Part shown: positions 8,286 to 23,073 of the stretch, in pieces
Position numbering within the stretch: the stretch's first letter is position 1
Layout: each line of letters begins with the position of its first letter
Source: Candidatus Omnitrophota bacterium
GTDB taxonomy: Bacteria; Omnitrophota; Gorgyraeia; Gorgyraeales; Gorgyraeaceae
Direction: 5' to 3'
Assembly (NCBI GenBank): GCA_026387235.1
Contig: JAPLMD010000026.1
Location: forward strand, 973-64,972
Length of the DNA: 64,000 nucleotides
The notes under the pieces: generated by a model
Told to the model about the DNA's origin: nothing
Database searches by the model: none
What the model saw: the letters and a program-made list of their open reading frames with translations, nothing else
Translations under genes and position numbers: made by a program

Positions 8286-8587
8286 CAGACGCTCACTCCT
8301 ATTATATCCTTCAGATAATCTCCGACGCTTCTCCTCTTAGCAGATCCTCCCCTTGAGGGAAGCTCGAGTATAAGAGGCATCTGGTTCTTGTACATAAGAT
8401 TATCCAGTTCCTGCCTTAAAAATAACGCTGCCTTTTCAGTCACCAGAATCACCCCTGCTTCTTCTGTTGCCAGCGCCACCTTTAAAGCCTCCAAGGCATT
8501 GGAACGGCTGGCAACCTCTCTTGTCTCTACGCCGGCCAGCCTGAAACCAAGGCCTGATTCCTTATCAGCTATGCAGAAAAACGTCAT
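8285..8587 (-). CDS. atpF: V-type ATP synthase subunit F
   Basis: 100 aa. GFRLAGVE...EEAGVILVTEKAA is typical of subunit F. Confidence 0.7.
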   Translation of the reverse strand: MTFFCIADKESGLGFRLAGVETREVASRSNALEALKVALATEEAGVILVTEKAALFLRQELDNLMYKNQMPLILELPSRGGSAKRRSVGDYLKDIIGVSV

Positions 8588-8922
8588 TATATTTTACCCA
8601 GGATCATTATAGCAATGATCAAGCCGTATATCGCGATACCTTCCGCAAGCCCTACGTATATCAGCGCTTTTCCTGCCATCTCCGGTTTCTCGCTTATCGC
8701 GCCTACTGCCGCCGCTCCTACGTGCGCCACTGCAATGCCTGCCGCAATCGCGCTAAGGCCTGTTGCGATCGATGCCGCTAAAAATGCCCATCCGACTATT
8801 GCCGGATCAGTTGCAGCCTGCTGCGCCTGCGCCCAAGCAGAACCGCAAAAAGAGATAAATAGAAAAAATATACAAAGCTTTACAACGCGCCACGACCATC
8901 TTATAATACGCTCCATGCCCAC
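8587..8922 (-). CDS. atpK: V-type ATP synthase proteolipid subunit K/c. Single hairpin with a signal-peptide-like N-terminal extension. The true start may be internal.
   Basis: C-terminal 75 aa form two TM helices with the conserved ion-binding Glu (GLAEGIAIYGLIIAIMILGKI). N-terminal 35 aa resemble a cleavable signal (LCIFFLFISFCGSAWA/QAQ). Confidence 0.75.
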   Translation of the reverse strand: MGMERIIRWSWRVVKLCIFFLFISFCGSAWAQAQQAATDPAIVGWAFLAASIATGLSAIAAGIAVAHVGAAAVGAISEKPEMAGKALIYVGLAEGIAIYGLIIAIMILGKI

Positions 8923-8925
8923 CTC

Positions 8926-10827
8926 CTAAATTTTGACCGGTTTATAAATCTCTTTGCCTGCCATGAAAAACTTTGAGAAAAACTCATAATAGTTCAGCCT
9001 CAGGGATTGTATGGTCACCACAAGCCCTTCTAGAAAAATTATAAGTATATTTCCTAAAATAACAACTAAAAAAGATAAAACCGCGCCGCCCGCGTCATTT
9101 ACGATCCGCGAGAGTTCGAATATAGCGATGAACAACCCCGCGTGCGCCAGCGCAAACGCGGCTATACGTATAAAGGATACTGTGTTCGCCAGATAGCTCA
9201 TGCCTACTTCCAGGATATCTATAGTGCTCTCCATGAGCGCTACCGGAATATTTTGTTTCTTTTTTTTAAAAATAGCCTCTATAAAAGGCTTCAGGAAAAG
9301 CAGGGTAACCCCGGCCGATATAATAGCGAAATAAATATTTATGCCCTGGGTTTTAGACATGGCCATTTTAGTAAAAAGCCCTATAGCTGACCAGTAGATA
9401 ATCCCGCCTATAAGGCCTGATTTGTCAAAAAGCGCTTTCAGATAATCCTTGTCCCTCATGGCATTTATTATATTTATCAGGATCCCGAGGCTTATAAAAC
9501 CCACGCCGAACATGATGCTAACTCTGAAAATCTCCATGATGTTCTCTATGGGCTTTATCCATAAAGAACGAAACTCTATCCCGAAAAAACTCCCGTAGAG
9601 CGCGCCGAATATGATCGAGCTTATCCCGCAGTATAGTAAAAGCGCGGATGCCTGCCTGACCTTTTCATTTTTACTAATTTTCAAAAACAGGCTCCCCAGG
9701 GACAATACAAGCCCGTGCCCTATGTCTCCGAACATGGCGCCGAACATGACGAGAAAGCCTATCGCGACGAATATCGTAGGATCAATGGTCCCATACCGCG
9801 GTATGCCGTAAGAATCTATTAATAATTCAAACGGCTTGAAAAACGCGTTATGCCTGAATCTCACCGGTATCTCTTCCTTCGGTATGTTCACTTCTTCCGC
9901 GTTCTTTGATTCAATGTAAGAGATTTTATCTATTCTTTTTATTTCTCTCACGACGTTTTCCTTTTCCTCCTTCGGGACCCAGCCTGAAAGAAGAACAGTT
10001 TTATCCGTTGTGCACAAATATTTTTTTGCCTCTAAAAGAGATTTTTTAAGCTTTATCAGGGATTGCATGCAGGACAAATCATCCCGGCGGCTTTCCCCTA
10101 CTTTTTTTATCTGATCTTGTACATCCTGGAGTTTCTTTTTTATGGCGCCTATTTCGCCTGACAACTTCCCTTCCACATCTTTGGAAATATCTTCCGTGTG
10201 CTTCGGAAATTCCATCTTTTCCCAAGCGATGTCCTTTAAAACCCTGTCTATAAAAACCCTGTCGCGCCTCAGCCCTATGAATAAAGCCGTGATCCTGTCG
10301 CCTTCTTTTTTAAAAGGATAAAATATATACGGGATATCCTTCAGGCTCCTTTCTAAAACTGAAATATTCTTCTCAACCGCCTTGCCCAGGGAAACCTCTA
10401 AAAAACTATACACCGATTCTCTTTTTAAAGAAAACAGCGGATAGGCTTTCAACTGCGAGAAGATGGAGTTTTTATTCTGCAGTTCTGAATCCAGCTCCTC
10501 TTTCTGGGCAAAAAAACGGGCTGCGTCATCCTCGATTCCGGTAAGTGTTTTTTTGATGTCATCGCAGGAAAAAGCCTTTATATCCTTGGCCGGCATAGGA
10601 GAAATGCCCAGCTTTTTTAAATTATCTCTTAATCTGGAGTCCAGCTCATCCCACTCAACGTATTCCTTGTCTATCTCATAAGGAGACAGCTCTCTCAGCT
10701 CATCCTCTATGTGACGTATATCAACCGGGTGAAATATCCCGAGTTTTAAAAGGTGATAGGTTACATCCTCTATCTTTTCTTTTAAAACAACCATGCTCAC
10801 TAATTCCATGCTTGATGCGGTCAGCAT
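8926..10827 (-). CDS. atpI: V-type ATP synthase subunit I (a-subunit)
   Basis: 633 aa. Cytoplasmic N-terminal half followed by a polytopic C-terminal half with the conserved ...RIAAFALAHAGLF... arginine helix. Confidence 0.8.
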   Translation of the reverse strand: MLTASSMELVSMVVLKEKIEDVTYHLLKLGIFHPVDIRHIEDELRELSPYEIDKEYVEWDELDSRLRDNLKKLGISPMPAKDIKAFSCDDIKKTLTGIEDDAARFFAQKEELDSELQNKNSIFSQLKAYPLFSLKRESVYSFLEVSLGKAVEKNISVLERSLKDIPYIFYPFKKEGDRITALFIGLRRDRVFIDRVLKDIAWEKMEFPKHTEDISKDVEGKLSGEIGAIKKKLQDVQDQIKKVGESRRDDLSCMQSLIKLKKSLLEAKKYLCTTDKTVLLSGWVPKEEKENVVREIKRIDKISYIESKNAEEVNIPKEEIPVRFRHNAFFKPFELLIDSYGIPRYGTIDPTIFVAIGFLVMFGAMFGDIGHGLVLSLGSLFLKISKNEKVRQASALLLYCGISSIIFGALYGSFFGIEFRSLWIKPIENIMEIFRVSIMFGVGFISLGILINIINAMRDKDYLKALFDKSGLIGGIIYWSAIGLFTKMAMSKTQGINIYFAIISAGVTLLFLKPFIEAIFKKKKQNIPVALMESTIDILEVGMSYLANTVSFIRIAAFALAHAGLFIAIFELSRIVNDAGGAVLSFLVVILGNILIIFLEGLVVTIQSLRLNYYEFFSKFFMAGKEIYKPVKI

Positions 10828-11867
10828 ATATTTAACAGGTTATTTGTCTCGTCCCTTTTCCAGCCAAAATTTTTGGCGTATAAAAGAGAAATAATATTTT
10901 TCGTCTCATTTCTCTTCAACATCACATATCCAAGGATCGCGCCTATTGTAAAAGGATATCCGGAAAGGGCTCTCTTGACTTCTTTCAACAAGACCTCATG
11001 AAGGAAATTTTCTATAAGGGACATGTTTTCTTCTATAAGCTCTCTGACTTTGGCGTACGGGCCTAGCGCTACGCTATCCACGATCTTTGTAAGCCCGTCA
11101 GTCGTATAAAGGCTCGCGACGTTCTCTTTATTAATCCTCGCTCCGCCCGGAATCATCCATTCCAGGATATCGCCGGCTGCCAGGCTGTAATACTTCCTCA
11201 TCCTTATGAGCCAGTTTATGTTTTCGGTATCTATCTCTATGCCTATGACCCTTCTAGCTATCTCTTGATCGCGGGGAGAAAGCGATTCCGCGCAGGAAAG
11301 AATCCTCTGGCAATAATCAATATCCAAGCTGGCTTCCAGATAAAAAACAGATCCTTTTTCTTTGAATCTGTCCCGAGCGCGTAAAATAGGTTTTCTGTAA
11401 GGCGTGTCGTCCAGAAGAAGTATTATTTCCTCTATATTGGGAGCGTACATGATTTTTTTATAGTCTATATCAAAACTTATCTTCTCTCCTAAAATAAAAT
11501 CATCGGCGTTAACCGGTGTTTTTTTATTCCATATCCTCAATGCCGTCTTTAACTGTTCAAGCTCATACTTTTCTATAAAAAGGCTCATGAGTTCTTTTTC
11601 TGTTTTTCCCGGAGCGGATCTATATATCCTTCTGTATATACCCAAGTCATTTTTTATGAACAGCTTTTCGATAATCCTGAGATCCGTGATTTCTTTGGGG
11701 ATGCTTTCTATTGCGGCTTTATGATACGGCGATTCCTTTAACAGCTCCATGGCCTTATAAACATCTTCCGCCTCCAGCATCCTGGAAAATAAATCCGGGC
11801 TTATCAGGAATGAGATCATGGCCCTTATCTTGGCGTTGATAAAAGAATACGTGGCGAGTTCTCGCAT
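10821..11867 (-). CDS. atpC: V-type ATP synthase subunit C (d-subunit)
   Basis: 348 aa. N-terminus YSFINAKIRAMISFLIS matches the subunit C/d consensus (Y.Y.NARVRAM...L). Operon context. Confidence 0.7.
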   Translation of the reverse strand: MRELATYSFINAKIRAMISFLISPDLFSRMLEAEDVYKAMELLKESPYHKAAIESIPKEITDLRIIEKLFIKNDLGIYRRIYRSAPGKTEKELMSLFIEKYELEQLKTALRIWNKKTPVNADDFILGEKISFDIDYKKIMYAPNIEEIILLLDDTPYRKPILRARDRFKEKGSVFYLEASLDIDYCQRILSCAESLSPRDQEIARRVIGIEIDTENINWLIRMRKYYSLAAGDILEWMIPGGARINKENVASLYTTDGLTKIVDSVALGPYAKVRELIEENMSLIENFLHEVLLKEVKRALSGYPFTIGAILGYVMLKRNETKNIISLLYAKNFGWKRDETNNLLNIC

Positions 11868-11869
11868 AT

Positions 11870-12187
11870 CTAATCTTCTATGGTTATTATCCGAGAGAAA
11901 ATCTTCTTGGAAACCTCGGAGATGTCCTTGTCTTTTCTCTCTTTAATGGCAAGGGTTTCTTCCCTGACTGCTTTAAGAACATTTTCTTTTTCAGACATAA
12001 ATCTTTTTTCTGATTTTTCTTTTTCTTTATGGCTGGAATCGTCTGCTTCTATAGCTGCTCTGTCTATTATATTTTCTTTTTCTTTTTTAGCGTCTCTCGC
12101 GATGCGCTCGGCCTCTTCTTTTGCGTCCTGAAGTATCTTACCGGCCCTTTCCTCTTCCTTCAGAATCTTTTCAATCGCGTCTTTCAT
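11870..12187 (-). CDS. V-type ATP synthase subunit G/H (small coiled-coil stator subunit)
   Basis: 105 aa. Entirely Lys/Glu-rich coiled coil. First gene of the operon, as in Thermus-type atpG. Confidence 0.5.
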   Translation of the reverse strand: MKDAIEKILKEEERAGKILQDAKEEAERIARDAKKEKENIIDRAAIEADDSSHKEKEKSEKRFMSEKENVLKAVREETLAIKERKDKDISEVSKKIFSRIITIED

Positions 12188-12190: not shown

Positions 12191-12757
12191 TTAGCGGCTC
12201 CCCGGTTTTATTATCTCAACGCCCTTTTTGCATAAAGGGCAATCCTCAGGCTTATAGGCGGGAAAATCAAGCCTTACCAGACTTTTTAATTTTACACCAA
12301 AATCAAGGGTTTTTCCACTTCTATTTACCACGCAGCCCACGCCTATTATCCCGGCGCCTTTTGATCTCACTGCCTCCAATACCTCATTCGTAGAAAGGCC
12401 TGTTGTTATAACATCTTCAACCACAAGGACCCTGTCTTCTTTTTTTAATTCAAAACCTCTCCTTAAGGTCATTTTGCCTTCTACCCGCTCTGTGAATAAA
12501 GATTTTACTCTTAAAGCGCGTCCTGTTTCATAAGAAACTATTATCCCTCCCAGGGCAGGCGCCACTACGCAGGTAGGCAAATCATCTTTAAAATAATCCG
12601 CCAGTTCCCCGCATAATTCTTCAGCTATATCAGGATACTGCAATAAAAGCGCGCACTGAAAATAATTCCCGCTATGAAGCCCGCTCGAAAGCATGAAATG
12701 CCCTTTCAATAAGGCTCCTGTTTCTTCAAATAATTTTAAAATCTCTTGTTCTTTCAA
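12191..12757 (-). CDS. pyrE: Orotate phosphoribosyltransferase. Apparent TTG start with AAGGAG RBS 6 nt upstream.
   Basis: 188 aa. GHF.LSSG.HS.Y and PRPP-binding VLVVEDVITTGLS motifs. Confidence 0.85.
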   Translation of the reverse strand: MKEQEILKLFEETGALLKGHFMLSSGLHSGNYFQCALLLQYPDIAEELCGELADYFKDDLPTCVVAPALGGIIVSYETGRALRVKSLFTERVEGKMTLRRGFELKKEDRVLVVEDVITTGLSTNEVLEAVRSKGAGIIGVGCVVNRSGKTLDFGVKLKSLVRLDFPAYKPEDCPLCKKGVEIIKPGSR

Positions 12758-12768: not shown

Positions 12769-12824
12769 ACCTTGGTCCACCTGACAGGTGAGCCAAATGG
12801 CTCACCTGTCAGGTGGACCAAGGT
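12769..12824. repeat. Perfect 27-bp-stem palindrome (2-nt loop) between pyrF and pyrE. Copy 1 of a repeated palindromic element.
   Basis: accttggtccacctgacaggtgagcca|atggctcacctgtcaggtggaccaaggt. Every position 12769-12824 pairs with its mirror, as verified by hand. Core GGTCCACCTG(A/C)CAGGTGAGCC recurs at 58386-58436. Confidence 0.8.
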
Positions 12825-12826: not shown

Positions 12827-13519
12827 TCAAATTGTTCTAAATGCCTTGACCGGATCTTTGGCCTTTGTAACAGGCCTTCCTATCACAATATAATCCGCGC
12901 CCCGTTCAAACGCTTCTTTGGGAGTCGCTACCCTTTTCTGGTCCCCGGCCTCACTCCCTTCAGGCCTTACGCCAGGCGTAACTATTAAAAAATCTCTTCC
13001 TGTATTTTTTCTTACCGCGATTATTTCCTCCGGGGACGCTACCACGCCGTCTAAACCTGCGTCCCTGGCCAATTTCGCCAGATTCAAAACCTGCTCTTCG
13101 GGCGATTTATTTACTCCGGATCTTTTCAAAGCTTCTCCATCCATGCTGGTAAGGACTGTTACCCCTAAGATCTTCGGCCTTGATATCCCCAGTTTCCCGC
13201 TTTCTTCTTCCGCAGCCTCTACAGCCTTTTTCATCATGCTATCCCCGCCTGACGCGTGCACGTTAAACATAAACACGCCGAACCTGACAGCTGCTTTGCT
13301 GGCGGCATAAACCGTATTCGGGATATCGTGAAATTTCAGGTCCAGAAAAATATCCTTGTCGTATTTTTTGACAAGATCTATCGCTTTCGGCCCGCAGGAA
13401 TAGAATAACTCCATGCCTATTTTAAAAATCTGCGCCTCGGGGCTTAAAATATCCAAAAGCCGCTCTTCTTCTTTAAGGGTATTCACATCCAGCGCTATTA
13501 TAATTCTATCTTTTATCAT
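12827..13519 (-). CDS. pyrF: Orotidine-5'-phosphate decarboxylase
   Basis: 230 aa. IIALD...FKIG...DLKFHDIPNT motifs of OMP decarboxylase. Confidence 0.85.
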   Translation of the reverse strand: MIKDRIIIALDVNTLKEEERLLDILSPEAQIFKIGMELFYSCGPKAIDLVKKYDKDIFLDLKFHDIPNTVYAASKAAVRFGVFMFNVHASGGDSMMKKAVEAAEEESGKLGISRPKILGVTVLTSMDGEALKRSGVNKSPEEQVLNLAKLARDAGLDGVVASPEEIIAVRKNTGRDFLIVTPGVRPEGSEAGDQKRVATPKEAFERGADYIVIGRPVTKAKDPVKAFRTI

Positions 13520-14441
13520 TCAAGCCGCCTACAATGTCTTCGATTTTTTCTATTTTATGCTTCCTTAGATACGCTTCGATACCTTTTACTATTTTCCCGC
13601 ATATACCGGGCTCTACAAAATTAGCAGTGCCTACCTGTATAGCCATAGCGCCTGCCAGCATAAATTCAATAGCGTCATCGCTATTCATTATACCACCTGC
13701 GCCTATAACGGGGATATTAATATTCTTCGAGACTTCATAGACCATTCTCAGGGCTATTGGTTTTATGCATGGCCCGCTCAAACCGCCTGTAATATTGCCG
13801 AGTTTCGGCTTTCTCGCATCTATGTCTATAGCCATTCCCAAAAACGTATTCACCAGGCTTACCGCGTCCGAACCCGCGTTCTCCGCCGCCTCGGCAATCT
13901 CAACTATATCCGTCACATTAGGAGAAAGTTTTGTAATGAGGGCTTTATTCGTTACCTTCCTCACGGCCTTTACAACTTCATACGTTGCTTTAGCATCCTG
14001 CGCTACCAGCCTTTTGCTTTTAAGATTAGGGCACGATATATTCAGCTCTATGCCTCTTATATTCTTTATCTTATCAATCCTTCTGGCAAGAATAAAAAAT
14101 TCGTCTATATTATTCCCGGATATGCTCACTATGATAGGGGCTCCTATTTTAGAGAGATACGGCATTTTTTCCTTTATGAAATCATCTACGCCTTCGTTCT
14201 GAAGCCCTATCGCATTGAGCATCCCGGCTTGGGTCTCGCATATCCTGGGCATAGGATTGCCCTGTTTCGGGTTTAACGTTATGGTCTTCGTAATAATTGC
14301 TCCTATTTCTGCCAAGTTAACCAGTTCTTCGAATTCCTTAGCGTACCCGAACGCGCCTGACGCAGCCATCACAGGATTTTTAAGCCTTATCTTTCCTATC
14401 TTCACTCCCAACATTCCCATTTTTCTTCTCCCGCCATCCAT
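13506..14441 (-). CDS. pyrD: Dihydroorotate dehydrogenase, class 1B catalytic subunit
   Basis: 311 aa. NAIGLQNEG, ELNISCPN and GGI..G.DA motifs of the PyrD TIM barrel. Adjacent to pyrK. Confidence 0.9.
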   Translation of the reverse strand: MDGGRRKMGMLGVKIGKIRLKNPVMAASGAFGYAKEFEELVNLAEIGAIITKTITLNPKQGNPMPRICETQAGMLNAIGLQNEGVDDFIKEKMPYLSKIGAPIIVSISGNNIDEFFILARRIDKIKNIRGIELNISCPNLKSKRLVAQDAKATYEVVKAVRKVTNKALITKLSPNVTDIVEIAEAAENAGSDAVSLVNTFLGMAIDIDARKPKLGNITGGLSGPCIKPIALRMVYEVSKNINIPVIGAGGIMNSDDAIEFMLAGAMAIQVGTANFVEPGICGKIVKGIEAYLRKHKIEKIEDIVGGLNDKR

Positions 14442-14448: not shown

Positions 14449-15255
14449 TTACCAAATTAACTCGGAGGCGTTAAACACCGGGCCGTCTTTGCAGGCAAGC
14501 TTACTGCCTGATTTCGTTTTGACGACGCACCCGAGGCACGCGCCGATCCCGCAGGCCATCTTTTCCTCTAACGACACCTGGCATTCAAAATTCCTTTCCA
14601 GGCATATATCCGCAATGCATCTGAGCATGCCGTGCGGCCCGCAAACATATACAATAGTTTCAAACTTGCTTTCCGTAGTCTTCAGGATTTTATGGAACAG
14701 CTTCGACACAAAACCCTTGCAGCCATAAGTGCCGTCGTCAGTGGAAACATAAACCTCAGGCGCAGCTTTTTTAAAATCCTTTTCGCATAAAATAAGGCTT
14801 CTTGTTTTCGCGCCTATCAAGACTATTGTTTTTATCTTATTCTTCTTTAGCTCCTCCGCCAGATATACAAGCGGCGCGGCGCCTATGCCGCCGGCAATTA
14901 TAATGGCCCTGGGTTCCAGATTGGAAGTTCCGGGCAGGATAAAACCGTTTCCCAATGGCCCGAGAACATCCACAAATTCTCCGTCTTTTTTCTTAGACAA
15001 AACCTCTGTGCCCTTGCCGACCACCTCATACAGAATCTCTATGCCCCTTTTTACCTTATGTATGCTGAAAGGCCTTCTCAAAAGCGGCTCCGAAGAATCA
15101 CTGCACCTGATCTCCACAAACTGCCCTGGTTTTACAATCCTCGCGATATAAGAGGCGTCGAGATGCATCTTATAATAAGCCGGGCCGACTTTATTATTCG
15201 AGTAGATTTTCGCTTTAATGTCTTTCATGTCAGAATAAATCCAATTGTTTTTCAC
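14449..15255 (-). CDS. pyrK: Dihydroorotate dehydrogenase electron-transfer subunit (FAD / 2Fe-2S)
   Basis: 268 aa. FNR-like FAD/NAD fold with C-terminal Cys cluster (CGPHGML...ACGIGACLGCVV). Confidence 0.85.
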   Translation of the reverse strand: MKNNWIYSDMKDIKAKIYSNNKVGPAYYKMHLDASYIARIVKPGQFVEIRCSDSSEPLLRRPFSIHKVKRGIEILYEVVGKGTEVLSKKKDGEFVDVLGPLGNGFILPGTSNLEPRAIIIAGGIGAAPLVYLAEELKKNKIKTIVLIGAKTRSLILCEKDFKKAAPEVYVSTDDGTYGCKGFVSKLFHKILKTTESKFETIVYVCGPHGMLRCIADICLERNFECQVSLEEKMACGIGACLGCVVKTKSGSKLACKDGPVFNASELIW

Positions 15256-16462
15256 CTGCGGAATCTTTTTCTTTTAATATCTCTATTTCGCCGTATTCCC
15301 CGTCAAAACCAGGCAGAATATTTACATTTCCGTTTCTAACGTTTACGATCGCCTTTGCTATTTTTATCGGCAATTCTTTCAAGAGTTTATCCTCGCTGAC
15401 TTCCATCAATACCTCAAGCTCTGTGCCAAGCCGCGGTATTATAGCGCGGTACTCCGCGCTAACCGCTTTAGAAGCATCGCCTACGCCCAGCGTGTCAGCT
15501 ATTATCTCTGCAAGCGGTATCATTCTTTTATAAGGGATGCTGTTCTCCGGGATAAAACCTTCCGGCCTGTCCGCAAGTTCTAAGACCCTGTTCATAACTC
15601 CTATTGTAAGAGGTTTTCCGCACTTAGGGCAAATATTTTTATTCTTTTTTGTTTCGCCGGGGCTGAGCCTGACATTGCACAAGCGATGGCCGTCGTAGTG
15701 ATACTTGCCCTCTTCAGGAAAAAATTCAATGGTAGATAAAAATTTCTTTTTATCTTTTTTCTTCAATGCGTCCAGTATAGCTTTATAGCTCATCTCAGTA
15801 TCAAATACATTCGCTTCTCTCCCTATTTTCTGAGGGCTGTGAGAATCAGAATTTGATAAGAGGGCGAATCTGTCCAGCTTGCTCCATTGCCAATTCATGC
15901 CGGGGTCTGAAGAAAGCCCTGTCTCCAAGGCGTAAATGTCTTTGGCGTATTCTTCAAAACATTCTTCTATTGAATCAAAACCTGACTTAGAGCCAAAAAG
16001 CGAGAACCAGGGGGTCCATATATGCCCCGGCACCAGAAAGACATCTTTACTGATGCCGAATAAAATCTCTGCCAGGTCTTTAGCGTCAATGCCTATGATA
16101 GGCCTCCCGTCATACGCAATATTCCCATAACCCGAAAGAGTAGAATTTATTTTATCGGCAATATCAAAACTCGGCACAAAAATAACATTATGAATTTTTC
16201 TGACCTTGCCGTTTTTCGAATAGATACTGGATACCTCTCCCGTGAGCATAAAATTCACGCCGTTATATTCAAATAAACCGTTTCCGGAATCTTTCAGGGT
16301 GTTTTTCAATTCTTCAAGCCACAGGTGGTGCGTGAAATCACCTGTGCCCAGCAAAGATATGCCTTTAAGCTTCGCGTATTCCGAAAGCGTCTTTATGTTC
16401 ATGTCAGGGCTTGTGGCGCGGCTGTATTTGGAATGTATGTGGAAATCAGCTATAAACTTCAT
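15230..16462 (-). CDS. PHP-domain protein with C-terminal zinc ribbon, endonuclease Q-like (TIGR00375-type)
   Basis: 410 aa. N-terminal PHP metal site ADFHIHSKYSRATS...GTGDFTHH. C-terminal CPKCGKPLTIGV zinc-finger-like element. Architecture matches the EndoQ family. Confidence 0.5.
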   Translation of the reverse strand: MKFIADFHIHSKYSRATSPDMNIKTLSEYAKLKGISLLGTGDFTHHLWLEELKNTLKDSGNGLFEYNGVNFMLTGEVSSIYSKNGKVRKIHNVIFVPSFDIADKINSTLSGYGNIAYDGRPIIGIDAKDLAEILFGISKDVFLVPGHIWTPWFSLFGSKSGFDSIEECFEEYAKDIYALETGLSSDPGMNWQWSKLDRFALLSNSDSHSPQKIGREANVFDTEMSYKAILDALKKKDKKKFLSTIEFFPEEGKYHYDGHRLCNVRLSPGETKKNKNICPKCGKPLTIGVMNRVLELADRPEGFIPENSIPYKRMIPLAEIIADTLGVGDASKAVSAEYRAIIPRLGTELEVLMEVSEDKLLKELPIKIAKAIVNVRNGNVNILPGFDGEYGEIEILKEKDSAGEKQLDLF

Positions 16463-17733
16463 GCCTTGTATATGACCTTTCCTTTATATATCGTATATTC
16501 TACAACGCCTTTTAATTTCCTGCCGATGAAGGCTGAATTTTTAGACCTGGATACAAAATCTTGTTTTTTCACCAGCCATTCTTTATCAGGAGAAATAATA
16601 ACTATATCAGCATCCTTACCCGGCCCTAAAGTTCCTTTATCTATACCCAGAACATTCGCGGGATTAAGAGAAATCTTTTTTACAAGCTCGCTCCAGGTTA
16701 ATATCCTGCGGTCTATAAGTTCGGTGATGCTTACCGCAAGCTCTGTTTCCAAACCTATGCTTCCGAATTCCGCATACTCGAATTCTATATCTTTTTCATT
16801 CTCAGTGTGAGGCGCGTGGTCAGACGCAATAACATCTATTGTGCCGTCTTTCAACCCCTCTCTTATCGCGAGAACATCGTCTTCTGCCCTTAAGGGCGGG
16901 TTGACTTTCATATTTGTATTATAGCCCAGCAGATCTTTTTCATTCAAAGTAAAATAATGCGGGGCGGTTTCCGCAGTCACTTTCACGCCTTTTTTCTTCG
17001 CCTTTCTTATTATCTCCACTGATTCGCCGCAGCTTACGTGGGCAATATGGACGCCGGCGCCTGATTTTTCCGCAAGCATAATATCTCTGGCCACCCTTTT
17101 ATATTCGGATTCTTTTGAAATACCCCTCAGGCCGAGCTTTGTGGACGTAAAACCTAAATTAACCACGCCTTTACCTGAAAGCGACTTATCCTCTGAATGG
17201 CATATTACAGGAATCTTTTCTTTTTTCGCCTTTTCAAACGCCCTTAACATTAACTCGTCATTGTCAACTGACGCGCCGTCGTCTGAAATAGCAACTATCC
17301 CTTCTTTTTTTAATGCCTGGATGTCGGTTAACTCCCGGCCGGCCCTTCCGATTGTAATTGCGCCGCATATAAATACATCCACGTTCGCAGTATTTTTAAC
17401 AATATCTTTCAGCGTTTTGATAATCTCTATCGAGTCAAGGCTGGGTAAAGTGTTCGGCATAGCCAGAACGCTGGTAACGCCTCCTTTACCTGCGGCTTTT
17501 GTGCCGCTACTGACAGTCTCCTTGTCTTCTCTGCCAGGCTCCCTCAAATGCACGTGCATGTCAACAATACCTGGCATGACTATTTTACCTGCGGCATCGA
17601 TTAAAGTATCAGCTTTAACGTCTATGCCCCTGGCCGCCTTGGATATCTTCCCGTCTTCTACGAGAATGTCCATGACCTCTTCTATCTTACCGGCCGGGTC
17701 TATCACGCGTCCATTTTTAATGAGTAATTTCAT
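16459..17733 (-). CDS. pyrC: Dihydroorotase
   Basis: 424 aa. VDMHVHLREPG metal-binding motif. Amidohydrolase fold. Confidence 0.9.
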   Translation of the reverse strand: MKLLIKNGRVIDPAGKIEEVMDILVEDGKISKAARGIDVKADTLIDAAGKIVMPGIVDMHVHLREPGREDKETVSSGTKAAGKGGVTSVLAMPNTLPSLDSIEIIKTLKDIVKNTANVDVFICGAITIGRAGRELTDIQALKKEGIVAISDDGASVDNDELMLRAFEKAKKEKIPVICHSEDKSLSGKGVVNLGFTSTKLGLRGISKESEYKRVARDIMLAEKSGAGVHIAHVSCGESVEIIRKAKKKGVKVTAETAPHYFTLNEKDLLGYNTNMKVNPPLRAEDDVLAIREGLKDGTIDVIASDHAPHTENEKDIEFEYAEFGSIGLETELAVSITELIDRRILTWSELVKKISLNPANVLGIDKGTLGPGKDADIVIISPDKEWLVKKQDFVSRSKNSAFIGRKLKGVVEYTIYKGKVIYKA

Positions 17734-18685
17734 CTTTTTTATCCTTATCCCGCGCCTGAGACACCCAGAATAAAACCGCCATCCTGACAGCTATGCCGTT
17801 AGTAACCTGCTCCAATATAACGGAATTCACGCCGTCCGCAACCTCGCTTGATATTTCAACGCCTCTATTTATCGGCCCGGGGTGCATTACAATAATGCCC
17901 TTCTTGGCCTTTTTCAGCCTCTCTTCTGTGATGCCGAATTTCTTAAAATATTCCAACTGGCTCGGAAACGCCTTCATGTCATCCCGCTCGAACTGCATCC
18001 TTAAAACATTTATGGCGTCTGAGCCGCTAAGCGCCTCATCTATATCGTTAGTAATTTTAACGTTCATATTTTCTATGCCCGGAGGGATCAGAATGCCGGG
18101 CGCGCAGACAGTCACATTGGCCCCGAACTTGGTCAATCCCCATATATTTGAACGCGCGACGCGCGAATGCGCAATGTCGCCCACTATGCTCACGTTCAGG
18201 CCTTCCAGCCTGCCTGTTTTCTTCCTCAAGGTAAACATGTCCAAAAGCGCCTGCGTCGGGTGCTCGTGCCAGCCGTCGCCCGCGTTTATTACGCTTATGC
18301 TTACATTCCGCGCCAGCATGTCAGCAGCGCCGGAACAGTTATGCCTCACCACGATAATATCTGCCTTCAGCGCCTCTATGTTTTTGCCTGTATCATTAAG
18401 CGTTTCTCCTTTTTTTACGCTGGAAGACTCTACTGCAATGTTTATGACATCAGCTGACAGTCTCTTGGCAGCCACTTCAAAGGATACCCTGGTCCTGGTG
18501 GATGGCTCATAAAAAAGATTGACTACTGTTTTACCGCGCAGGGCAGGGACTTTCTTGATCTTTCTATCCAGGATTTCCCTGAAAGATTCAGCCGTGTCTA
18601 AAAGCAGCTCGATGTCCTCTTTTGAAAGATATTCCAACCCCAGGAGGTCCTTATGAACCCATTTTGCTGTTTTCTTCTTTGTCAT
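17717..18685 (-). CDS. pyrB: Aspartate carbamoyltransferase catalytic subunit
   Basis: 322 aa. STRTR carbamoyl-phosphate-binding motif. HP.Q and VMHPGP motifs. Confidence 0.9.
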
Positions 18686-19221
18686 TCCCCGGTTTCCTCT
18701 ATGCCGACGCTATCCTCATTATCCGTCTCCTGCAATTTCACCTGCACAAGCTCTTTCTGCGAAGTAGGGATATTTTTCCCCACGTAATCAGCCCGGATAG
18801 GAAGCTCGCGATGGCCCCTGTCTATAAGGACCGCGAGCTGTATTGTCTTAGGCCTTCCAAAATCTATAAGGGCGTCCAACGCGCACCTGATAGTGCGGCC
18901 CGTATATAAAACATCATCCACAAGCACTATATTTTTATTCTCTATGTCAAAGTCTATCTCGGTATTATGAATCACGGGCTGTTCGGATATGGCGCTCAGA
19001 TCGTCCCTGTAAAAGGTTATATCCAAAGCTCCCACGTCTAATTTCGTGCCGTATAGATTATTTATCACTTTTGCGATGCGCTCCGCCAGGACATACCCCC
19101 TGGTTCTTATCCCTACTATGGCAAGGTCCTTGACGCCTTTATTGTTTTCTATAATCTCATGGCTTATCCTTGTAATCGAACGCTCTATTTCTTCTTTTGT
19201 GAAAACTTGTTTTAGAGGCAT
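18682..19221 (-). CDS. pyrR: Bifunctional pyr operon regulator / uracil phosphoribosyltransferase PyrR
   Basis: 179 aa. PRT-type motif [19 protein letters not shown] start with AGGAGA RBS. First gene of the pyr operon. Confidence 0.9.
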
Positions 19222-19237: not shown

Positions 19238-19350
19238 ATAAAATGAAATGGGCTTAACCATTTCTGATTAAGCCCATTATATACTAAAATTATAAAATCC
19301 GCTATATTCACTTTTTACTCCCTTTCCAGCCTCTCTGTGCTGATTTAAAG
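19238..19350 (-). promoter_or_regulatory. PyrR-dependent transcription attenuator: PyrR binding loop plus intrinsic terminator in the pyr leader
   Basis: Leader RNA (minus strand) contains UUUAAAUCAGCACAGAGAGGCUGGAAAGG (19321-19350). This is a near-match to the Bacillus PyrR binding-loop consensus UUUAA.UCCAGAGAGGCU.GCAAGG. Downstream lies the hairpin GGGCUUAAUCAGAAAUGGUUAAGCCC (19250-19275), followed by AUUUCAUUUUAUCU and then the RBS/ATG of pyrR. Confidence 0.75.
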
Positions 19351-19365
19351 GTACTTACTAGTGTT

Positions 19366-19397
19366 AAATTATACCACCTATTTTTAGAATGTCAAGG
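19366..19397 (-). promoter_or_regulatory. Sigma70-type promoter of the pyr operon
   Basis: Minus strand reads TTGACA-(16 nt)-TGgTATAAT. The -35 is the reverse complement of 19390-19395 and the extended -10 is the reverse complement of 19368-19376. It lies about 15 nt upstream of the PyrR binding loop. The -35 overlaps the stop codon of the upstream radical SAM gene. Confidence 0.6.
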
Positions 19398-20843
19398 TTT
19401 TCCTAAAGAGATAAAAAACTTGTTTTTTATTATCACTGCAAATCCTTCAAATAACATCTTTATCTCGGGCAAGCAGGGATTTTTCATTAGGTGCATGATC
19501 CTGTGCATAAAGAATCTAGGATTGAAATAGACTTTCCTATATGCCTCTTTTATTGATTTCTCCAGAATAGGTAAATCCAATTGGTCTTTTAATATCTTTC
19601 CTTTCTTATTAAAATATTCGTCGTAATCGTATGAAAGTAATGTCTTATTTCTTTTCGCCTCATCGAATAACTGGCTGCCGGGCAGAGGGGTGAATATATT
19701 AAACGTCGTGTAGGTCGGGTTTAATTTTAGAGCAAAATTAATAGTTTTTTTAATCTCATCGACGGTTTCGCCCGGCATCCCTATCATGAATGATGCCTTG
19801 GCCGCAATTCCTATTTTCTTTGTGGAGTTAATTGCTTCCTCTGCCTGTTCTAAGGTCGTATATTTTTTTGCCTGCGTGTGCCACTTTTGTGTCCCGAAGT
19901 CTACTCCATATTTTATATTGCGGCATCCTGCTTTCCTCATAGCCAGCAACATCTCTTTGTCTACCGTATCCACCCTCGCATAGCAATTCCATGTAATCTT
20001 AATATCCTCGTGCAGCAATTTTTCGCAAAATTCCATTATCCTTTCTTTTGGCGCCGTAAGCACGTCGTCATAAAAACGGAAGTCGTGTATTCCAAAGTCG
20101 CGTATGCATGATTTTATTTCTTCAATAACGTTTGCGATTGAGCGGAATTTTACTCTATTTTTGAAACGACTGCCGGCTCTGCCGCAATACGTGCACTGGT
20201 ACGGACAACCTCTTGAAGAAAGGATGCCGGTTGACGGCAGTTGATAATAGTTACTTGGAATGGGGATATACCTACCCACATCTACTAAATGCCGCGCCGG
20301 AAAAGGCAAACTATCCAAATCTTCGATGGGTTCATGCAGGGGGTTTTGTATCACGGCGCCGGCCTCGCGCCAGACAAGGCCCCTGATATCAGGAACATCT
20401 ATTCCTATCACAAGGTCAGTAAACGACCTCTCTCCCTCTCCGTAAATTAAATAATCAAAGTTTTTGAACATCTCCAGGGTTTCTACCGGCAGGGCCGATG
20501 CGTGGGCTCCTCCGACAATTATCTTGGCCTTACTGTATTGCCGGATCAATCCTGCTATCCGATTTGCAGTTATAATGGAGTTAGTGTAGGCAGTCATACC
20601 GATAAAGTCAAAATTAGTATGCTGCAATGCATCTACTAAACGCTGTTCTGCGTCATTATGCAAGGCCATATCAATAAAAGAAACGCGCATCCCTTGCTTT
20701 TCTAAAAAAGAGGCGATATATAACAATCCCAGCTCTAATTCGTGACCACCGTAGTCTTTTCTAAAACTCCCTCCAAAATCTATGGATAAGCGCGCGGGAG
20801 GGCGGACAAGTAATATATTCTTAGTCATAGTCTCTGGATCCAA
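19392..20843 (-). CDS. B12-binding-domain radical SAM protein (class B radical SAM family)
   Basis: 483 aa. N-terminal Rossmann-like cobalamin-binding-type domain. CxxxCxxC motif SSRGCPYQCTYCGRAGSR. Confidence 0.8.
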   Translation of the reverse strand: MDPETMTKNILLVRPPARLSIDFGGSFRKDYGGHELELGLLYIASFLEKQGMRVSFIDMALHNDAEQRLVDALQHTNFDFIGMTAYTNSIITANRIAGLIRQYSKAKIIVGGAHASALPVETLEMFKNFDYLIYGEGERSFTDLVIGIDVPDIRGLVWREAGAVIQNPLHEPIEDLDSLPFPARHLVDVGRYIPIPSNYYQLPSTGILSSRGCPYQCTYCGRAGSRFKNRVKFRSIANVIEEIKSCIRDFGIHDFRFYDDVLTAPKERIMEFCEKLLHEDIKITWNCYARVDTVDKEMLLAMRKAGCRNIKYGVDFGTQKWHTQAKKYTTLEQAEEAINSTKKIGIAAKASFMIGMPGETVDEIKKTINFALKLNPTYTTFNIFTPLPGSQLFDEAKRNKTLLSYDYDEYFNKKGKILKDQLDLPILEKSIKEAYRKVYFNPRFFMHRIMHLMKNPCLPEIKMLFEGFAVIIKNKFFISLGKP

Positions 20844-23073
20844 TATCCTTTAATACGGCATTTGCTATGTTTTCAGCCAACAATTGATTGCCCTTCCTCG
20901 TGCAGTGACCAAAATCACTCCCAAAGTGATCAGTGAAATATTCGTCATAATTACCCTTCTCTAAGGCTGCTTTAAACACAGCTTCATTATCTACGAAGAT
21001 AATACCTTCTTTATCTTCAAAAATATTCTTTAGCGGCTCAAGCTTACGGCAAGGATACTGCACTACCACCAGTCTTATTTTTTTCTGCTCTAGGATTTCT
21101 CTAAGCTTTTGATAGTTATGAATTGTGTTCGCATAAGGCGATAACTTATCTGCCGTTTCCTCGTATCGTTTCTCACTCGACCCGGACTCTAATCTTTCTT
21201 GTGGTTGCGCATTGACTCTGTAATAGTCTCCCAATCCAAGATAGGTGCTGTAATTTCGCAGGCTTTTCTCAAGAGCCCCCTGTAACAATTCTTCCGCATC
21301 ATGCAATTTTCCCTGTTCTATATAAAGCCGGGCCAATTTAGCACATATCTCGTGATTCCCTGGGTTTATTTCTAAACCTTTTGTCCAGACCTGCTGGGCT
21401 TCTTGAAATCTTGTCGCTTCCTCATACAAGCTTCCTAATCTATAGTATGCACATGACTGCCTTGGGTTTATTGATATAGCCTTTACAAACATCTCTTCTG
21501 CTTCCCGGGATTTCCCTTTCGCTTCATAGCAACTACCGAGTCCAAGGCATAGCTCGTAATGTCTTGGATTCATTTTGAGCGCCTTTCGAAACATTTCTAC
21601 TGCTTCCTGGAATGCTGCTCCCCATCTATAATACAACGCAAATTGCTTATATATTTCATAGTGCCCCGGGTTTTGCTTAAGCGCTTTCCTAAGGATTCTT
21701 CTTGCCTCTAACCATCTTCCCATATTGATATAAAACTCACCCAGTGAAAAATACGCTTCATGACTCTTTGGGTTAATTGCAATAGCTCTTTTCAATATAT
21801 TTTCTGCGTCCTTGCTCCTTCCCGTAATTCTATAATGGCGCGCCAATTCATGATACGTATTAATCTTCTGAGGGTATAGTACGATAGCCCGCTGTAACAG
21901 CTCTTCTGCTTCTTTATACCTTCCTGCATCATGATAACCCGATCCTATTGCAACGCATGCTTCATCACTCTCCGGTTTTACAGCGATGAGCTTGTCGTAC
22001 ATCTCTTTTGCTTCCCGGGATTCTCCTCTTTTTACATAATAGAGCCCCAAGGTACAAATTGCTTTGTAATTTTCCGGATTAAGCTCAATAGCCCTCTGAA
22101 GTATATCCTCTGCTTTTTTGTACCTTCCTACTTTCATATAGTACTGACCACATAAAACATAAGCTGCATCGTTTGCGGGAGATATCTCTATGGTCTTTTG
22201 GATCAGCTCTTCTATATCCTGGAGGCGCCCCTCATTGAGATAATATCCACCCAATTCGTAATACGCATCAGTGTTTTGAGGGTTTATTGCAACAGCCTTT
22301 TGGAATAGTTCTTCTGCTTCTTTAAATCTCGCTGTCTCTGCATAGCACTTTCCTAATTCGAAATAGGCCGTATCATCTCCGGCGTCAGCCATGATAGCTT
22401 TTTTAAACATTTCTTCTGCTTCCAGGAATCTTGCTGAATCCAGATAATAACTGCCTAATTCAAGATAGGCTTTGTTATCGCCAGGGTTTATTGCAATGGC
22501 CTTTTGCAGCTTCTCCTCTTCTTTCTTAAACCTTACCGCCATAGAATGCGTTGTTAAAAAGAGGCCTTTTTCTCGCAGTTCTCCAAGTTTATTGGCGCTA
22601 TGCAGCCATAGAAGGTTCACAAGTTTATAGACTCTATATCCCTTCAAAAAAGATAATATTCGAGGAAAAGGCATACTCTCATAAGGAAGAATATCTGAGT
22701 CATTTATCCCCATCATCGTAATTACCATATCAGGATGGTATTTATTCAACTGATCGGGTAATCGTCTTAAAATATCTCTTGTGGTGATTCCGCTGACTCC
22801 TCCATTGATAACAACGAACTTAACCCCAATATTATTCTTATTCAGTATCTGCTGAAGCTGAGAAGGATAGGAGCCCTTTTTTGTGTGCGCTGTCGTAGAC
22901 TCACCTAAACAAAGAATACGATATGCCTTTCCTTCGCGAATAACCTTTTCATTTCTGTATTGCTGCAAAGATATGAGTGCCCAGCCCCCCAGTCGCAATC
23001 CTAGCTCAAGGATAATCACACATACAACTAACCCAATAAGTATTAAAATTACTTTTTCTCTAAGTCTCAGCAT
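20821..23073 (-). CDS. Membrane-anchored SGNH/GDSL-type hydrolase split by a ~450-aa TPR-repeat array
   Basis: 750 aa. N-terminal TM helix. SGNH block I CLGESTT, blocks II/III GGVSGITT / MMGINDSD. About 12 TPR repeats follow. The catalytic block V DFGHCT sits at the extreme C-terminus. Confidence 0.65.
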   Translation of the reverse strand: MLRLREKVILILIGLVVCVIILELGLRLGGWALISLQQYRNEKVIREGKAYRILCLGESTTAHTKKGSYPSQLQQILNKNNIGVKFVVINGGVSGITTRDILRRLPDQLNKYHPDMVITMMGINDSDILPYESMPFPRILSFLKGYRVYKLVNLLWLHSANKLGELREKGLFLTTHSMAVRFKKEEEKLQKAIAINPGDNKAYLELGSYYLDSARFLEAEEMFKKAIMADAGDDTAYFELGKCYAETARFKEAEELFQKAVAINPQNTDAYYELGGYYLNEGRLQDIEELIQKTIEISPANDAAYVLCGQYYMKVGRYKKAEDILQRAIELNPENYKAICTLGLYYVKRGESREAKEMYDKLIAVKPESDEACVAIGSGYHDAGRYKEAEELLQRAIVLYPQKINTYHELARHYRITGRSKDAENILKRAIAINPKSHEAYFSLGEFYINMGRWLEARRILRKALKQNPGHYEIYKQFALYYRWGAAFQEAVEMFRKALKMNPRHYELCLGLGSCYEAKGKSREAEEMFVKAISINPRQSCAYYRLGSLYEEATRFQEAQQVWTKGLEINPGNHEICAKLARLYIEQGKLHDAEELLQGALEKSLRNYSTYLGLGDYYRVNAQPQERLESGSSEKRYEETADKLSPYANTIHNYQKLREILEQKKIRLVVVQYPCRKLEPLKNIFEDKEGIIFVDNEAVFKAALEKGNYDEYFTDHFGSDFGHCTRKGNQLLAENIANAVLKDIGSRDYD

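Follow-up and report, generated by a model that had tools for sequence, protein, structure and literature searches.

Endonuclease Q as a conserved member of the pyrimidine biosynthesis operon in Omnitrophota

We analysed a 64-kb stretch of DNA from an Omnitrophota bacterium (the window) and found a gene for a protein of the endonuclease Q (EndoQ) family inside an operon of the order pyrR-pyrB-pyrC-endoQ-pyrK-pyrD-pyrF-pyrE (Table 1). Judged from the gene orders of related genomes, endoQ is a built-in gene of the pyr operon across the phylum Omnitrophota. The kind of enzyme is known, but its conserved placement in a pyr operon appears to be undescribed. A literature search returned no paper that contains both EndoQ and pyrimidine biosynthesis, and the Omnitrophota literature found did not mention pyrimidine or endonuclease Q. 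The reading that we favour, and hold to be probable though by no means assured, is that the gene encodes a bona fide EndoQ which would be an integral cistron of the pyr/car operon, subject to PyrR attenuation and expressed in step with the pyr enzymes.

The earlier note on this DNA had described a 410-aa open reading frame between pyrC and pyrK with the motifs DFHIHSKYS, GTGDFTHH and CPKCG, and all of these were found, the motifs at residues 6-14, 39-46 and 278-282 of the protein. An identical protein from an Omnitrophica MAG is named "endonuclease Q family protein" at NCBI. More than 100 homologs with 81-100% identity are spread over many metagenomes, and the dN/dS of endoQ was 0.056 in comparison with one relative (L010), with 0.04-0.12 for the pyr genes. 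Based on these homologs and the dN/dS, endoQ is a real gene under purifying selection.

In a phmmer search against the PDB the protein matched Pyrococcus furiosus EndoQ (PfuEndoQ, 5zb8_A; E 1.3e-61), with residues 5-398 of the query aligned to 5-385 of the chain and 37% identity over 377 aligned positions. The assignment to EndoQ made in the earlier note was borne out by this full-length homology and by the presence of all the catalytic and pocket residues. The HMM check proposed there succeeded in part: TIGR00375 was, as predicted, the best and indeed the sole NCBIfam match, covering 2-374 of the 374 profile positions, but the score of 194.2 bits was below the strict cut-off of 326.6. The protein thus represents a bacterial branch of the EndoQ family that has diverged. 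Precomputed Pfam annotation gave PF27218 (MJ0043_C), and a match to Pfam PHP_C was sub-threshold (21.1 bits vs 21.3). The UvrD/REP helicase domains (PF00580, PF13361) are absent, and the reading frame stops at residue 410 after the clamp motif. AlphaFold2 run on a shallow alignment, in which all sequences were >=81% identical, reached a mean pLDDT of 42 and a pTM of 0.26, too low for the model to be used. The fold is predicted to be that of PfuEndoQ, whose solved structure the sequence matches directly. By homology, the gene product is a genuine protein of the endonuclease Q type, and the corresponding activity is predicted.

The roles of the metal ligands and pocket residues of PfuEndoQ have been described previously (PMC5961232, PMC8307549). 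We mapped its ligands His8, His10, Glu76, His84, His139 and Asp193, with His195 in addition, onto H8, H10, E76, H91, H147, D206 and H208 of the window protein, and the PHP metal ligands were invariant in alignment A1 (14 sequences). The pocket and steric gate are also kept, with H147, T150, E180, G182, L183, S184 and N204 at the positions of Pfu His139, Thr142, Glu167, Gly169, Leu170, Ser171 and Asn191; the Pfu steric gate H139/G169/S171 corresponds to H147/G182/S184. Metal and pocket residues are invariant within the clade. The sole changed pocket residue is Pfu Leu168, which is Thr181 in the window protein. In the zinc-binding domain H259 stands in place of the first Cys of the C4 site of PfuEndoQ (ligands C249/C252/C268/C271; PMC5961232) and is invariant in 14 of the 14 sequences of A1.

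Several phosphoesterase families contain PHP domains, and the neighbours of the gene serve nucleotide synthesis. This would suit a phosphoesterase of pyrimidine metabolism with nucleotides or oligonucleotides as substrates, or a member of another PHP family, in place of a lesion nuclease. We find this hardly credible, since no other PHP family was matched and conservation extends to the EndoQ-specific zinc domain, the C-terminal DNA-binding domain, the lesion pocket and the clamp motif. Histidinol phosphatase HisJ, PolX/PolIII PHP and TrpH/YcdX gave no NCBIfam match at E<=1e-3, and a classification such as histidinol phosphatase was rejected for lack of profile support in NCBIfam and Pfam. Neither a different PHP family nor a loss of the EndoQ catalytic residues, which the note had named as evidence against its proposal, was seen.

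Table 1. Features of the pyr operon and of the EndoQ protein in the window, in the direction of transcription.
Feature	Position	Strand	Evidence or remark
Operon promoter, TTGACA-16 nt-TATAAT with TG extension	19368..19395	minus	12/12 sigma-70 consensus match
PyrR binding site/attenuator leader, predicted	19242..19355	minus	Rfam RF00515, 54.5 bits vs gathering 54
pyrR, bifunctional regulator/UPRTase	18682..19221	minus	NF003549, 256 bits > cut-off 138
pyrB, aspartate carbamoyltransferase	17717..18685	minus	NF002032, 413 bits > cut-off 263
pyrC, dihydroorotase	16459..17733	minus	TIGR00857, 410 bits > cut-off 279
endoQ	15230..16462	minus	ATG start, 410 aa, stand-alone endonuclease Q family protein
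PHP catalytic domain, about residues 1-248	15719..16462	minus	PfuEndoQ mapping; limits approximate
Zn-binding domain, about residues 249-315	15518..15718	minus	Predicted ligands H259, C262, C278, C281
C-terminal helical DNA-binding domain, about residues 316-398	15269..15517	minus	PF27218 MJ0043_C and alignment to residue 398
Putative beta-clamp-binding motif QLDLF, extreme C-terminus	15233..15247	minus	Bacterial consensus QL[SD]LF matched
pyrK	14449..15228	minus	NF000798, 217 bits vs cut-off 219; ATG 15228 probable start
pyrD, dihydroorotate dehydrogenase catalytic subunit	13506..14441	minus	NF005574, 409 bits > cut-off 269
pyrF, OMP decarboxylase	12827..13519	minus	NF001273, 291 bits > cut-off 193
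Perfect 26-27 bp palindrome, pyrF-pyrE spacer	12769..12824		RNA hairpin, -57.6 kcal/mol
pyrE, orotate phosphoribosyltransferase, TTG start	12191..12757	minus	TIGR01367, 220 bits > cut-off 150

Clamp motifs have been recorded for bacterial EndoQ homologs (PMC4858679), and DPANN archaeal homologs have PIP-like tails instead of QLDLF. The motif at the C-terminus of the window protein probably serves to tether this EndoQ to the replication clamp.

Within the PyrR leader lie a predicted binding loop (...CAGAGAGGCUGG...) and, at 19247-19278, a terminator hairpin of 14 bp with a U-rich tail after it; the fold of the leader had a z of -3.4 in comparison to shuffles. Of the cistrons, pyrR alone has a canonical GGAG Shine-Dalgarno sequence. 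No second or internal PyrR site was found in the window operon, even at E<=1-5, and no convincing terminator or promoter was found ahead of endoQ. The earlier claim that endoQ lies within the pyr operon was supported, with promoter, PyrR RNA site and terminator all at the head. Weak promoter-like matches were seen within pyrC (16947->16918 and 16526->16497).

The stop of pyrC and the start of endoQ share an ATGA, through which the translation of endoQ is probably coupled to that of pyrC. Overlap of endoQ with both neighbours had been claimed; it held for pyrC, but for pyrK only if translation begins at GTG 15255 (longest ORF 14449-15255), which gives a 26-nt overlap. From ATG 15228 pyrK starts 1 nt beyond the endoQ TGA. 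We favoured this ATG because the profile match begins at residue 10 and the pyrK of a relative (L001) is called as 259 aa. Downstream of endoQ, the palindrome between pyrF and pyrE is a possible transcript boundary or processing site. None of carA, carB, fpg and SLOG4 is encoded in the 64-kb window by tblastn, which agrees with the reported absence of carAB from the operon; the relatives indicate that carAB once stood after endoQ.

According to the favoured reading, EndoQ would be a metal-dependent PHP nuclease with a tight pocket for bases that are deaminated or lost (uracil, hypoxanthine, xanthine or an AP site). It would flip such a base into this pocket and nick the DNA backbone directly on the 5' side. 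Transcription of endoQ would start at the one strong promoter, ahead of pyrR, and pass the PyrR attenuator. Since promoter and attenuator would be those of the pyr enzymes, endoQ mRNA would be expected to rise together with theirs at low UMP/UTP, that is, with the nucleotide supply for replication. A nuclease in step with pyrimidine synthesis, the coupling that the earlier note proposed, might in this way be of benefit to the cell.

Between 520 and 55886 the genes lie almost all on one strand, and at about 31 of 43 junctions they overlap or have at most 11 nt between them. A V-ATPase gene begins 3 nt past the pyrE stop. As tight co-directional packing is usual here, with pyrE running into V-ATPase genes, adjacency alone says little on co-regulation. 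The place of a normal EndoQ in the pyr operon may therefore be a frozen accident, in which the gene hitch-hikes in a compact co-directional genome, is kept since a break in the operon would be costly, has no regulatory meaning and maybe uses its own promoter, for which the weak sites inside pyrC would be candidates. Against this stands the ATGA shared with pyrC, which hints at coupled translation. We consider such an accident rather unlikely, although with a real chance of being correct, and the comparison with relatives bears on it from both sides.

Among the matches listed, endoQ lies in a pyr/car cluster at 18 of the 19 genome loci of the Omnitrophota EndoQ clade, whereas none of 61 loci outside the clade or in other phyla has a pyr or car gene within 8 kb of endoQ. 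In 15 of the linked loci pyrR-pyrB-pyrC is directly upstream of endoQ, one is a cut contig with endoQ-pyrK-pyrD and two have endoQ-car; EndoQ identity ranges from 95% down to 54%. The proposed check of the gene's conservation in pyr operons of related genomes was therefore strongly positive across Omnitrophota. PyrR sites (RF00515) were also found upstream of pyrR in the relatives L019 (53.7 bits), L036 (43.5 bits) and L013 (41.3 bits). The clade was monophyletic in a neighbour-joining (NJ) tree, which points to a single ancestral origin of every linked locus, so the contrast of 18 to 0 does not amount to 18 independent observations. We rejected its use as independent statistics for this reason, and regard the decay of the flanks as the fairer argument.

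The single origin speaks for a frozen accident. The genes that flank the operon are, however, not conserved even among relatives at 86-91% identity, where they are already replaced, and the slot after pyrC persists to 54% identity. In addition, compact operons that have lost carAB and kept endoQ occur on two separate branches of the tree. Both observations speak for endoQ as an integral cistron. Some loci point the other way. In L020, endoQ is the first gene of a unit with divergent transcription, endoQ-flavodoxin-tRNA-Arg-SLOG4-carB-...-fpg; no pyrRBC is present at this locus and no PyrR site was detected ahead of endoQ even at E<=1-5, and L020 thus keeps the endoQ-car linkage without PyrR. 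L003 and L086, both inside the clade, showed no linkage of endoQ to the pyr operon. An ancestral linkage of EndoQ and PyrK in archaea was considered and rejected: the gene after endoQ in L009 is FAD/NAD-binding and not a PyrK relative (BLASTP E 0.029).

In deeper relatives carAB, a tRNA-Arg and a true Fpg/MutM share the operon with endoQ. Relatives carry endoQ, tRNA-Arg, SLOG4, carAB and fpg between pyrC and pyrK. Both carA and carB follow endoQ in L016 and L053; L019 has carB with no carA detected, and L013 a half-length carB. Further guests in the pyr operons of relatives are genes for a PEMT-like methyltransferase, a flavodoxin, YjbQ and a LolA-like protein. Their presence shows that unrelated genes can ride in the operon, which again would suit an accident. 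Fpg/MutM, as a second base-damage repair gene, is a conserved guest in many lineages, and this argues against one. Going further, base-damage repair might be wired to nucleotide-pool sensing in the whole phylum, with EndoQ and often Fpg/MutM as obligate cistrons of the PyrR operon and repair raised together with de novo pyrimidine synthesis. This extension is speculative, and we would give it only about one chance in four. If true, regulation would tie DNA base repair to dNTP supply, a connection undescribed in the literature searched.

It is also conceivable that EndoQ mainly restricts uracil-containing invading DNA, as of PBS1-like phages, and does not serve repair of the chromosome. The gene stands in a core biosynthetic operon and not in a defence island, its product is as slow-evolving as the pyr enzymes, and inheritance is vertical along phylum lines, unlike that of typical defence genes. 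The predicted clamp-binding tail likewise points to replication-coupled repair. A role in defence is thus very improbable.

Taken as a whole, the enzyme belongs to a known family; the operon variant in which it lies is conserved across the phylum and appears to be undescribed. In Omnitrophota endoQ has kept its place in the pyrimidine operon through deep divergence, in many lineages together with fpg. A real co-regulation would make this a testable example of DNA-repair capacity set by the nucleotide-pool sensor PyrR. Operon context could help to flag functional bacterial EndoQs. If the placement is a frozen accident, what is left would be a repair gene with a good annotation in a compact genome and nothing more.

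Previous work has regarded EndoQ as mainly archaeal, with 'a limited number of bacteria' also having it (PMC5961232, PMC6202378). In our search the family comprised 3560 clusters at 50% identity (E<=1e-3), its members were spread very widely among uncultured bacteria and DPANN archaea, and its clamp-binding tail switches with the domain of life. PfuEndoQ (PF1551; PDB 5ZB8, 7K30-7K33) has the same architecture of PHP, Zn-binding and C-terminal helical domains, aligned over 5-398, with identical metal ligands and steric-gate residues and a clamp-binding peptide likewise at the extreme C-terminus. Besides the modest overall identity and the Leu-to-Thr change in the pocket, the window protein differs from it by an H-C-C-C zinc site, by a 7-residue insertion after the Glu76 strand and by the QLDLF (beta-clamp) tail in place of a PIP box, and its host is bacterial and mesophilic. 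The literature found does not mention a pyr operon as context for EndoQ.

The stand-alone EndoQ of Bacillus pumilus / B. subtilis nicks 5' of dU, dI and AP sites (Shiraishi et al. 2017, as cited in PMC5961232 and PMC6202378). It is a stand-alone bacterial homolog like the window protein, and in the part of this literature available to us no pyr-operon context is mentioned. The B. pumilus EndoQ study reportedly defines EndoQ families 1-3. The nearest representatives of the 50%-identity clusters are EndoQ-UvrD helicase fusions of 1000-1200 aa, with 50-58% identity across the EndoQ module and likewise an H-C-C-C zinc site; their helicase domains occur only in the long relatives and not in the 410-aa window protein. 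The old "DNA helicase UvrD" names on 410-aa relatives seem to have been carried over from these fusions during annotation, and such names are wrong for stand-alone EndoQ proteins.

The pyr operon of Bacillus subtilis has the order pyrR-pyrP-pyrB-pyrC-pyrAA-pyrAB-pyrK-pyrD-pyrF-pyrE and is PyrR-attenuated. The window operon resembles this type in its order of pyr genes, its PyrR protein and its PyrR-binding leader with terminator. It differs in having one attenuator only and no pyrP between pyrR and pyrB, which overlap by 4 nt. At the slot between pyrC and pyrK, where Bacillus has carAB (pyrAA/pyrAB), the window operon lacks carAB and has endoQ.

The open reading frame between pyrC and pyrK (endoQ) has an ATG start and encodes 410 aa, with the PHP and CPKCG motifs quoted in the earlier note, and NCBIfam profiles identified both neighbours as that note had placed them. 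Phmmer was run against all PDB sequences and the sole matches were to Pyrococcus furiosus endonuclease Q (PfuEndoQ; 5ZB8, E 1.3e-61; 7K30/7K31), with query residues 5-398 aligned to residues 5-385 of the 400-residue chain and 37% identity across 377 aligned positions. The sole NCBIfam match was TIGR00375, the profile proposed in the earlier note, covering the whole profile (E 4e-57), but its 194 bits fall under the strict cut-off of 326.6. No other PHP family, such as histidinol phosphatase, was matched among the NCBIfam and Pfam profiles. An identical public protein is named 'MAG: endonuclease Q family protein [Candidatus Omnitrophica bacterium]' and carries Pfam PF27218 (MJ0043_C).

Metal-ligand, pocket and steric-gate residues of PfuEndoQ have been defined by structure work (PMC5961232; review PMC8307549). 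All metal ligands were found to be kept (H8, H10, E76, H84, H139, D193 and H195 correspond to H8, H10, E76, H91, H147, D206 and H208), which together with the homology bore out the EndoQ identity. The pocket and steric-gate residues T142, E167, G169, L170, S171 and N191 correspond to T150, E180, G182, L183, S184 and N204, whereas pocket Leu168 is replaced by Thr181 and the first zinc cysteine, C249, by His259, giving an H-C-C-C site. The mapped positions, including His259, were invariant in an alignment of Omnitrophota, other bacteria, DPANN archaea and helicase fusions. An AlphaFold2 model from a shallow alignment had a mean pLDDT of 42 and was set aside.

At its C-terminus the protein carries QLDLF-COOH, a match to the consensus for binding the bacterial beta clamp. 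Among the best 80 of 594 loci, nearly all bacterial stand-alone homologs had a Q-x-x-L-F ending, in comparison to PIP-box-like tails such as QKNLLDF in eight DPANN archaeal homologs (L006, L009, L023, L033, L051, L072, L082 and L089). Shiraishi et al. showed that PCNA, bound via a C-terminal PIP box, stimulates archaeal EndoQ, and beta-clamp motifs were already pointed out in bacterial homologs (PMC4858679).

Features of the window and of related loci (numbered within each sequence)
Feature	Position	Strand	Evidence or description
Extended -10 sigma-70 promoter	19395 to 19368	-	TTGACA, 16 nt, TG-n-TATAAT; 12/12 pattern match
PyrR-binding RNA	19355-19242	-	Rfam RF00515, 54.5 bits (gathering score 54)
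Hairpin ending PyrR leader	19278-19247	-	14 bp and U-rich tail; pattern scan
pyrR	18682-19221	-	NCBIfam profile
pyrB	17717-18685	-	NCBIfam profile
pyrC	16459-17733	-	NCBIfam profile
endoQ	15230-16462	-	ATG start, 410 aa
pyrK	14449-15255	-	NCBIfam profile; longest ORF
pyrD	13506-14441	-	NCBIfam profile
pyrF	12827-13519	-	NCBIfam profile
pyrE	12191-12757	-	NCBIfam profile
Palindrome, first copy	12769-12824		26-bp stem, -57.6 kcal/mol, z -12
Palindrome, second copy	58386-58436		22-bp stem, -51.2 kcal/mol
V-type ATPase region	520-12187	-	Two A-subunit genes (520-2253; 5904-7667), other subunits alongside each
B12-binding radical SAM cluster	19392-33813	-	Paralogs 19392-20843, 31013-32401, 32422-33813
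Long plus-strand gene	55955-58273	+	772-aa fused membrane/spermidine-synthase-like protein
AmmeMemoRadiSam system	58437-59906, 60069-61043	-	489-aa fused B+A protein adjoining radical SAM partner
Thymidylate-synthase-like	61930-62679	-	TIGR03283, 104.5 bits (cut-off 174.55)
HAD-IA hydrolase	63172-63786	-	Weakly similar to pyrimidine 5'-nucleotidases
fpg	L013 11486-12286; L016 12197-12997; L019 13863-14663		Between carB and pyrK; also L014, L018, L020, L057
tRNA-Arg(CCG)	L013 9311-9382; L016 7255-7326; L019 9715-9786; L020 9754-9827	coding	Also L014, L017, L018, L057

Upstream of pyrR the promoter, PyrR RNA, hairpin, a GGAG Shine-Dalgarno sequence and the pyrR ATG follow in this order, and the leader folded better than 200/200 shuffles (z -3.4). 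Scanned permissively with Rfam, the operon as a whole showed no second PyrR site, and pattern scans inside the coding sequence gave only weak promoter-like and terminator-like matches. Sub-threshold PyrR sites were detected directly upstream of pyrR in three related loci (L019, 53.7 bits; L036, 43.5; L013, 41.3). In B. subtilis, PyrR bound to UMP or UTP stabilises an anti-antiterminator and transcription terminates in the leader, which is read through when pyrimidines are low. The window endoQ would be transcribed from the PyrR-attenuated promoter and, by analogy, expressed together with the pyr enzymes through this leader.

The earlier note had endoQ overlapping both neighbours. This held for pyrC, whose stop shares the tetranucleotide ATGA with the endoQ start, but the 26-nt overlap with pyrK arises only with an upstream GTG as start. 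Profile alignments and a 259-aa gene call in a relative indicate that the likely pyrK start is ATG AAA GAC (MKD...), one base after the endoQ TGA. Between 520 and 55886 essentially every gene is encoded on the minus strand, and at about 31 of 43 junctions the neighbours overlap or are separated by at most 11 nt, so overlapping genes say little about functional coupling in this genome. The only long plus-strand gene follows this stretch. In tblastn searches carA, carB, fpg and a SLOG-family gene were not found in the whole 64-kb window, and pyrR overlaps pyrB by 4 nt, which means that pyrP is not at its Bacillus position; carAB and pyrP are thus missing from their usual places, as had been noted. 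Purifying selection on endoQ is strong (dN/dS 0.056 at dS 0.55 against locus L010), with values of 0.04-0.12 for the pyr genes.

Conservation was studied with an alignment of diverse EndoQ modules as query against a single genome for each GTDB species, which gave 594 confirmed loci; the best 80 were analysed, with pyr, car and other genes placed by tblastn. Nineteen of these loci formed one EndoQ clade in a neighbour-joining tree: 13 were labelled Omnitrophota or Omnitrophica, one had no phylum label, and five, third-party assemblies labelled 'uncultured Planctomycetia', were nested within this clade. As the earlier note had proposed to check, the arrangement recurs in related genomes, with pyrR-pyrB-pyrC directly upstream of endoQ in 15 of the 19. 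One further locus is a contig cut at its edge with endoQ-pyrK-pyrD, two (L020, L048) have endoQ linked to carB without pyrRBC, and one (L086) showed no pyr or car linkage. Such linkage was also not found for a nested stand-alone homolog (P0129; L003-L005). Of the 61 loci outside the clade, which include CPR/Patescibacteria, DPANN, WOR-3, Nitrospirota and Thermodesulfobacteriota among others, not one had a pyr or car gene within 8 kb. EndoQ identity in linked loci ranged from 95% down to 54%. In a baseline comparison, relatives at 86-91% identity already lacked the upstream neighbour genes of the window, and only L001, L002 and L011 had kept the V-ATPase genes downstream; pyrC and endoQ have thus stayed adjacent far beyond the reach of ordinary synteny. 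In the tree the linkage goes back to a single event shared by every linked locus.

Three operon types were distinguished. The compact type, pyrR-B-C-endoQ-K-D-F-E, was found in the window and in L001, L010, L011, L012, L022, L025 and L036. The long type, pyrR-B-C-endoQ-(flavodoxin)-tRNA-Arg(CCG)-SLOG cluster 4-(carA)-carB-(YjbQ)-fpg-(PEMT-like)-pyrK-D-F, was found in L013, L014, L016-L019 and L057. In the third (L034, L053) an insert of 1.1-1.6 kb precedes endoQ and carA-x-carB follows. CarAB, fpg, SLOG4 and the tRNA have been lost from the operon in the window's lineage while endoQ was retained. Because the compact type occupies two separate branches of the tree, which is an unbootstrapped distance tree, the comparison suggests that carAB may have departed twice while endoQ stayed.

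The tRNA gene, kept in 8/8 long-type loci, directly follows endoQ or endoQ-flavodoxin, precedes the SLOG cluster 4/TIGR00725 gene and may divide the transcript unit into two parts for processing. Fpg, a second DNA base-repair gene in many Omnitrophota pyr/car operons, classifies as a genuine MutM (TIGR00577, 274-279 bits for L013 and L016; cut-off 203). Its substrates are oxidised purines. What endoQ and fpg share would be the expression of base-damage repair along with nucleotide synthesis, plausibly in step with replication, and not a uracil-specific logic. In L020 endoQ is first in a divergently transcribed car/fpg unit in which no PyrR site was detected; what endoQ invariably accompanies is therefore the pyrimidine/carbamoyl-phosphate neighbourhood and not PyrR itself. 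Unrelated passenger genes also occur in relatives' pyr operons; like the L020 locus, the dense gene packing and the single origin, they call for a cautious reading. The best supported reading is a predicted genuine, clamp-tethered EndoQ lesion nuclease whose gene is built into the Omnitrophota pyr/car operon and has been kept there by selection.

Other features were observed in the window. The REP-like perfect palindrome (GGTCCACCTG[A/C]CAGGTGAGCC ... reverse complement) lies in the pyrF-pyrE spacer, followed by the pyrE Shine-Dalgarno sequence and a U-run, and again between convergent genes; compensatory changes distinguish the copies, and close relatives L001 and L011 have other palindromes in this spacer. 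It may mark a transcript boundary or a processing site, or represent a mobile palindromic element. The V-ATPase genes, suggestive of two sets back to back, begin 3 nt after pyrE with no terminator in the gap. The radical SAM cluster also encodes a SPASM radical SAM protein, a GT2 glycosyltransferase, an SDR epimerase-like protein and a 750-aa TPR protein, and may serve to modify lipids or polysaccharides. Some 45 kb from the pyr operon, a second small group of pyrimidine-related genes is made up of the divergent archaeal/methanogen-type thymidylate-synthase-like gene and, two genes beyond, the HAD-IA hydrolase.

When 1.84 billion cluster representatives were searched exhaustively with HMMER, 3560 EndoQ clusters were found at E<=1e-3, of which 1059 reached E<=1e-30. 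Among the nearest representatives, most have 1000-1200 aa, with the EndoQ module fused to a UvrD/REP helicase; this architecture dominates the nearest 50%-identity clusters (P0124, P0126, P0130 and most of P0121-P0270), and for this reason some stand-alone 410-aa Omnitrophota relatives are wrongly named 'DNA helicase UvrD' in older records. Inspected fusions (P0130, L075, L087) carry a clamp-like QLxLF in the inter-domain linker, and inteins (Intein_splicing and LAGLIDADG homing endonuclease domains) interrupt P0121 (834 aa) and P0150 (1331 aa). EndoQ occurs widely among CPR/Patescibacteria and DPANN archaea, and its tree largely follows phylum boundaries. A 218-aa FAD/NAD-binding protein after EndoQ in an archaeal MAG (L009, 8001-9913) was rejected as a PyrK relative (BLASTP E 0.029, insignificant).

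Among the papers searched, none combined EndoQ with 'pyrimidine biosynthesis', and those listed on Omnitrophota made no mention of pyrimidine or endonuclease Q. Already known are the enzyme family, the NCBI name of the window protein, which is correct, and the clamp motif in bacterial homologs (PMC4858679). In comparison to the Bacillus pyr operon, carAB of the relatives is in the Bacillus position between pyrC and pyrK, with endoQ just ahead. What appears to be new is this pyr operon variant with built-in repair genes, together with a divergent H-C-C-C bacterial EndoQ that, unlike the UvrD/REP fusions, stands alone.
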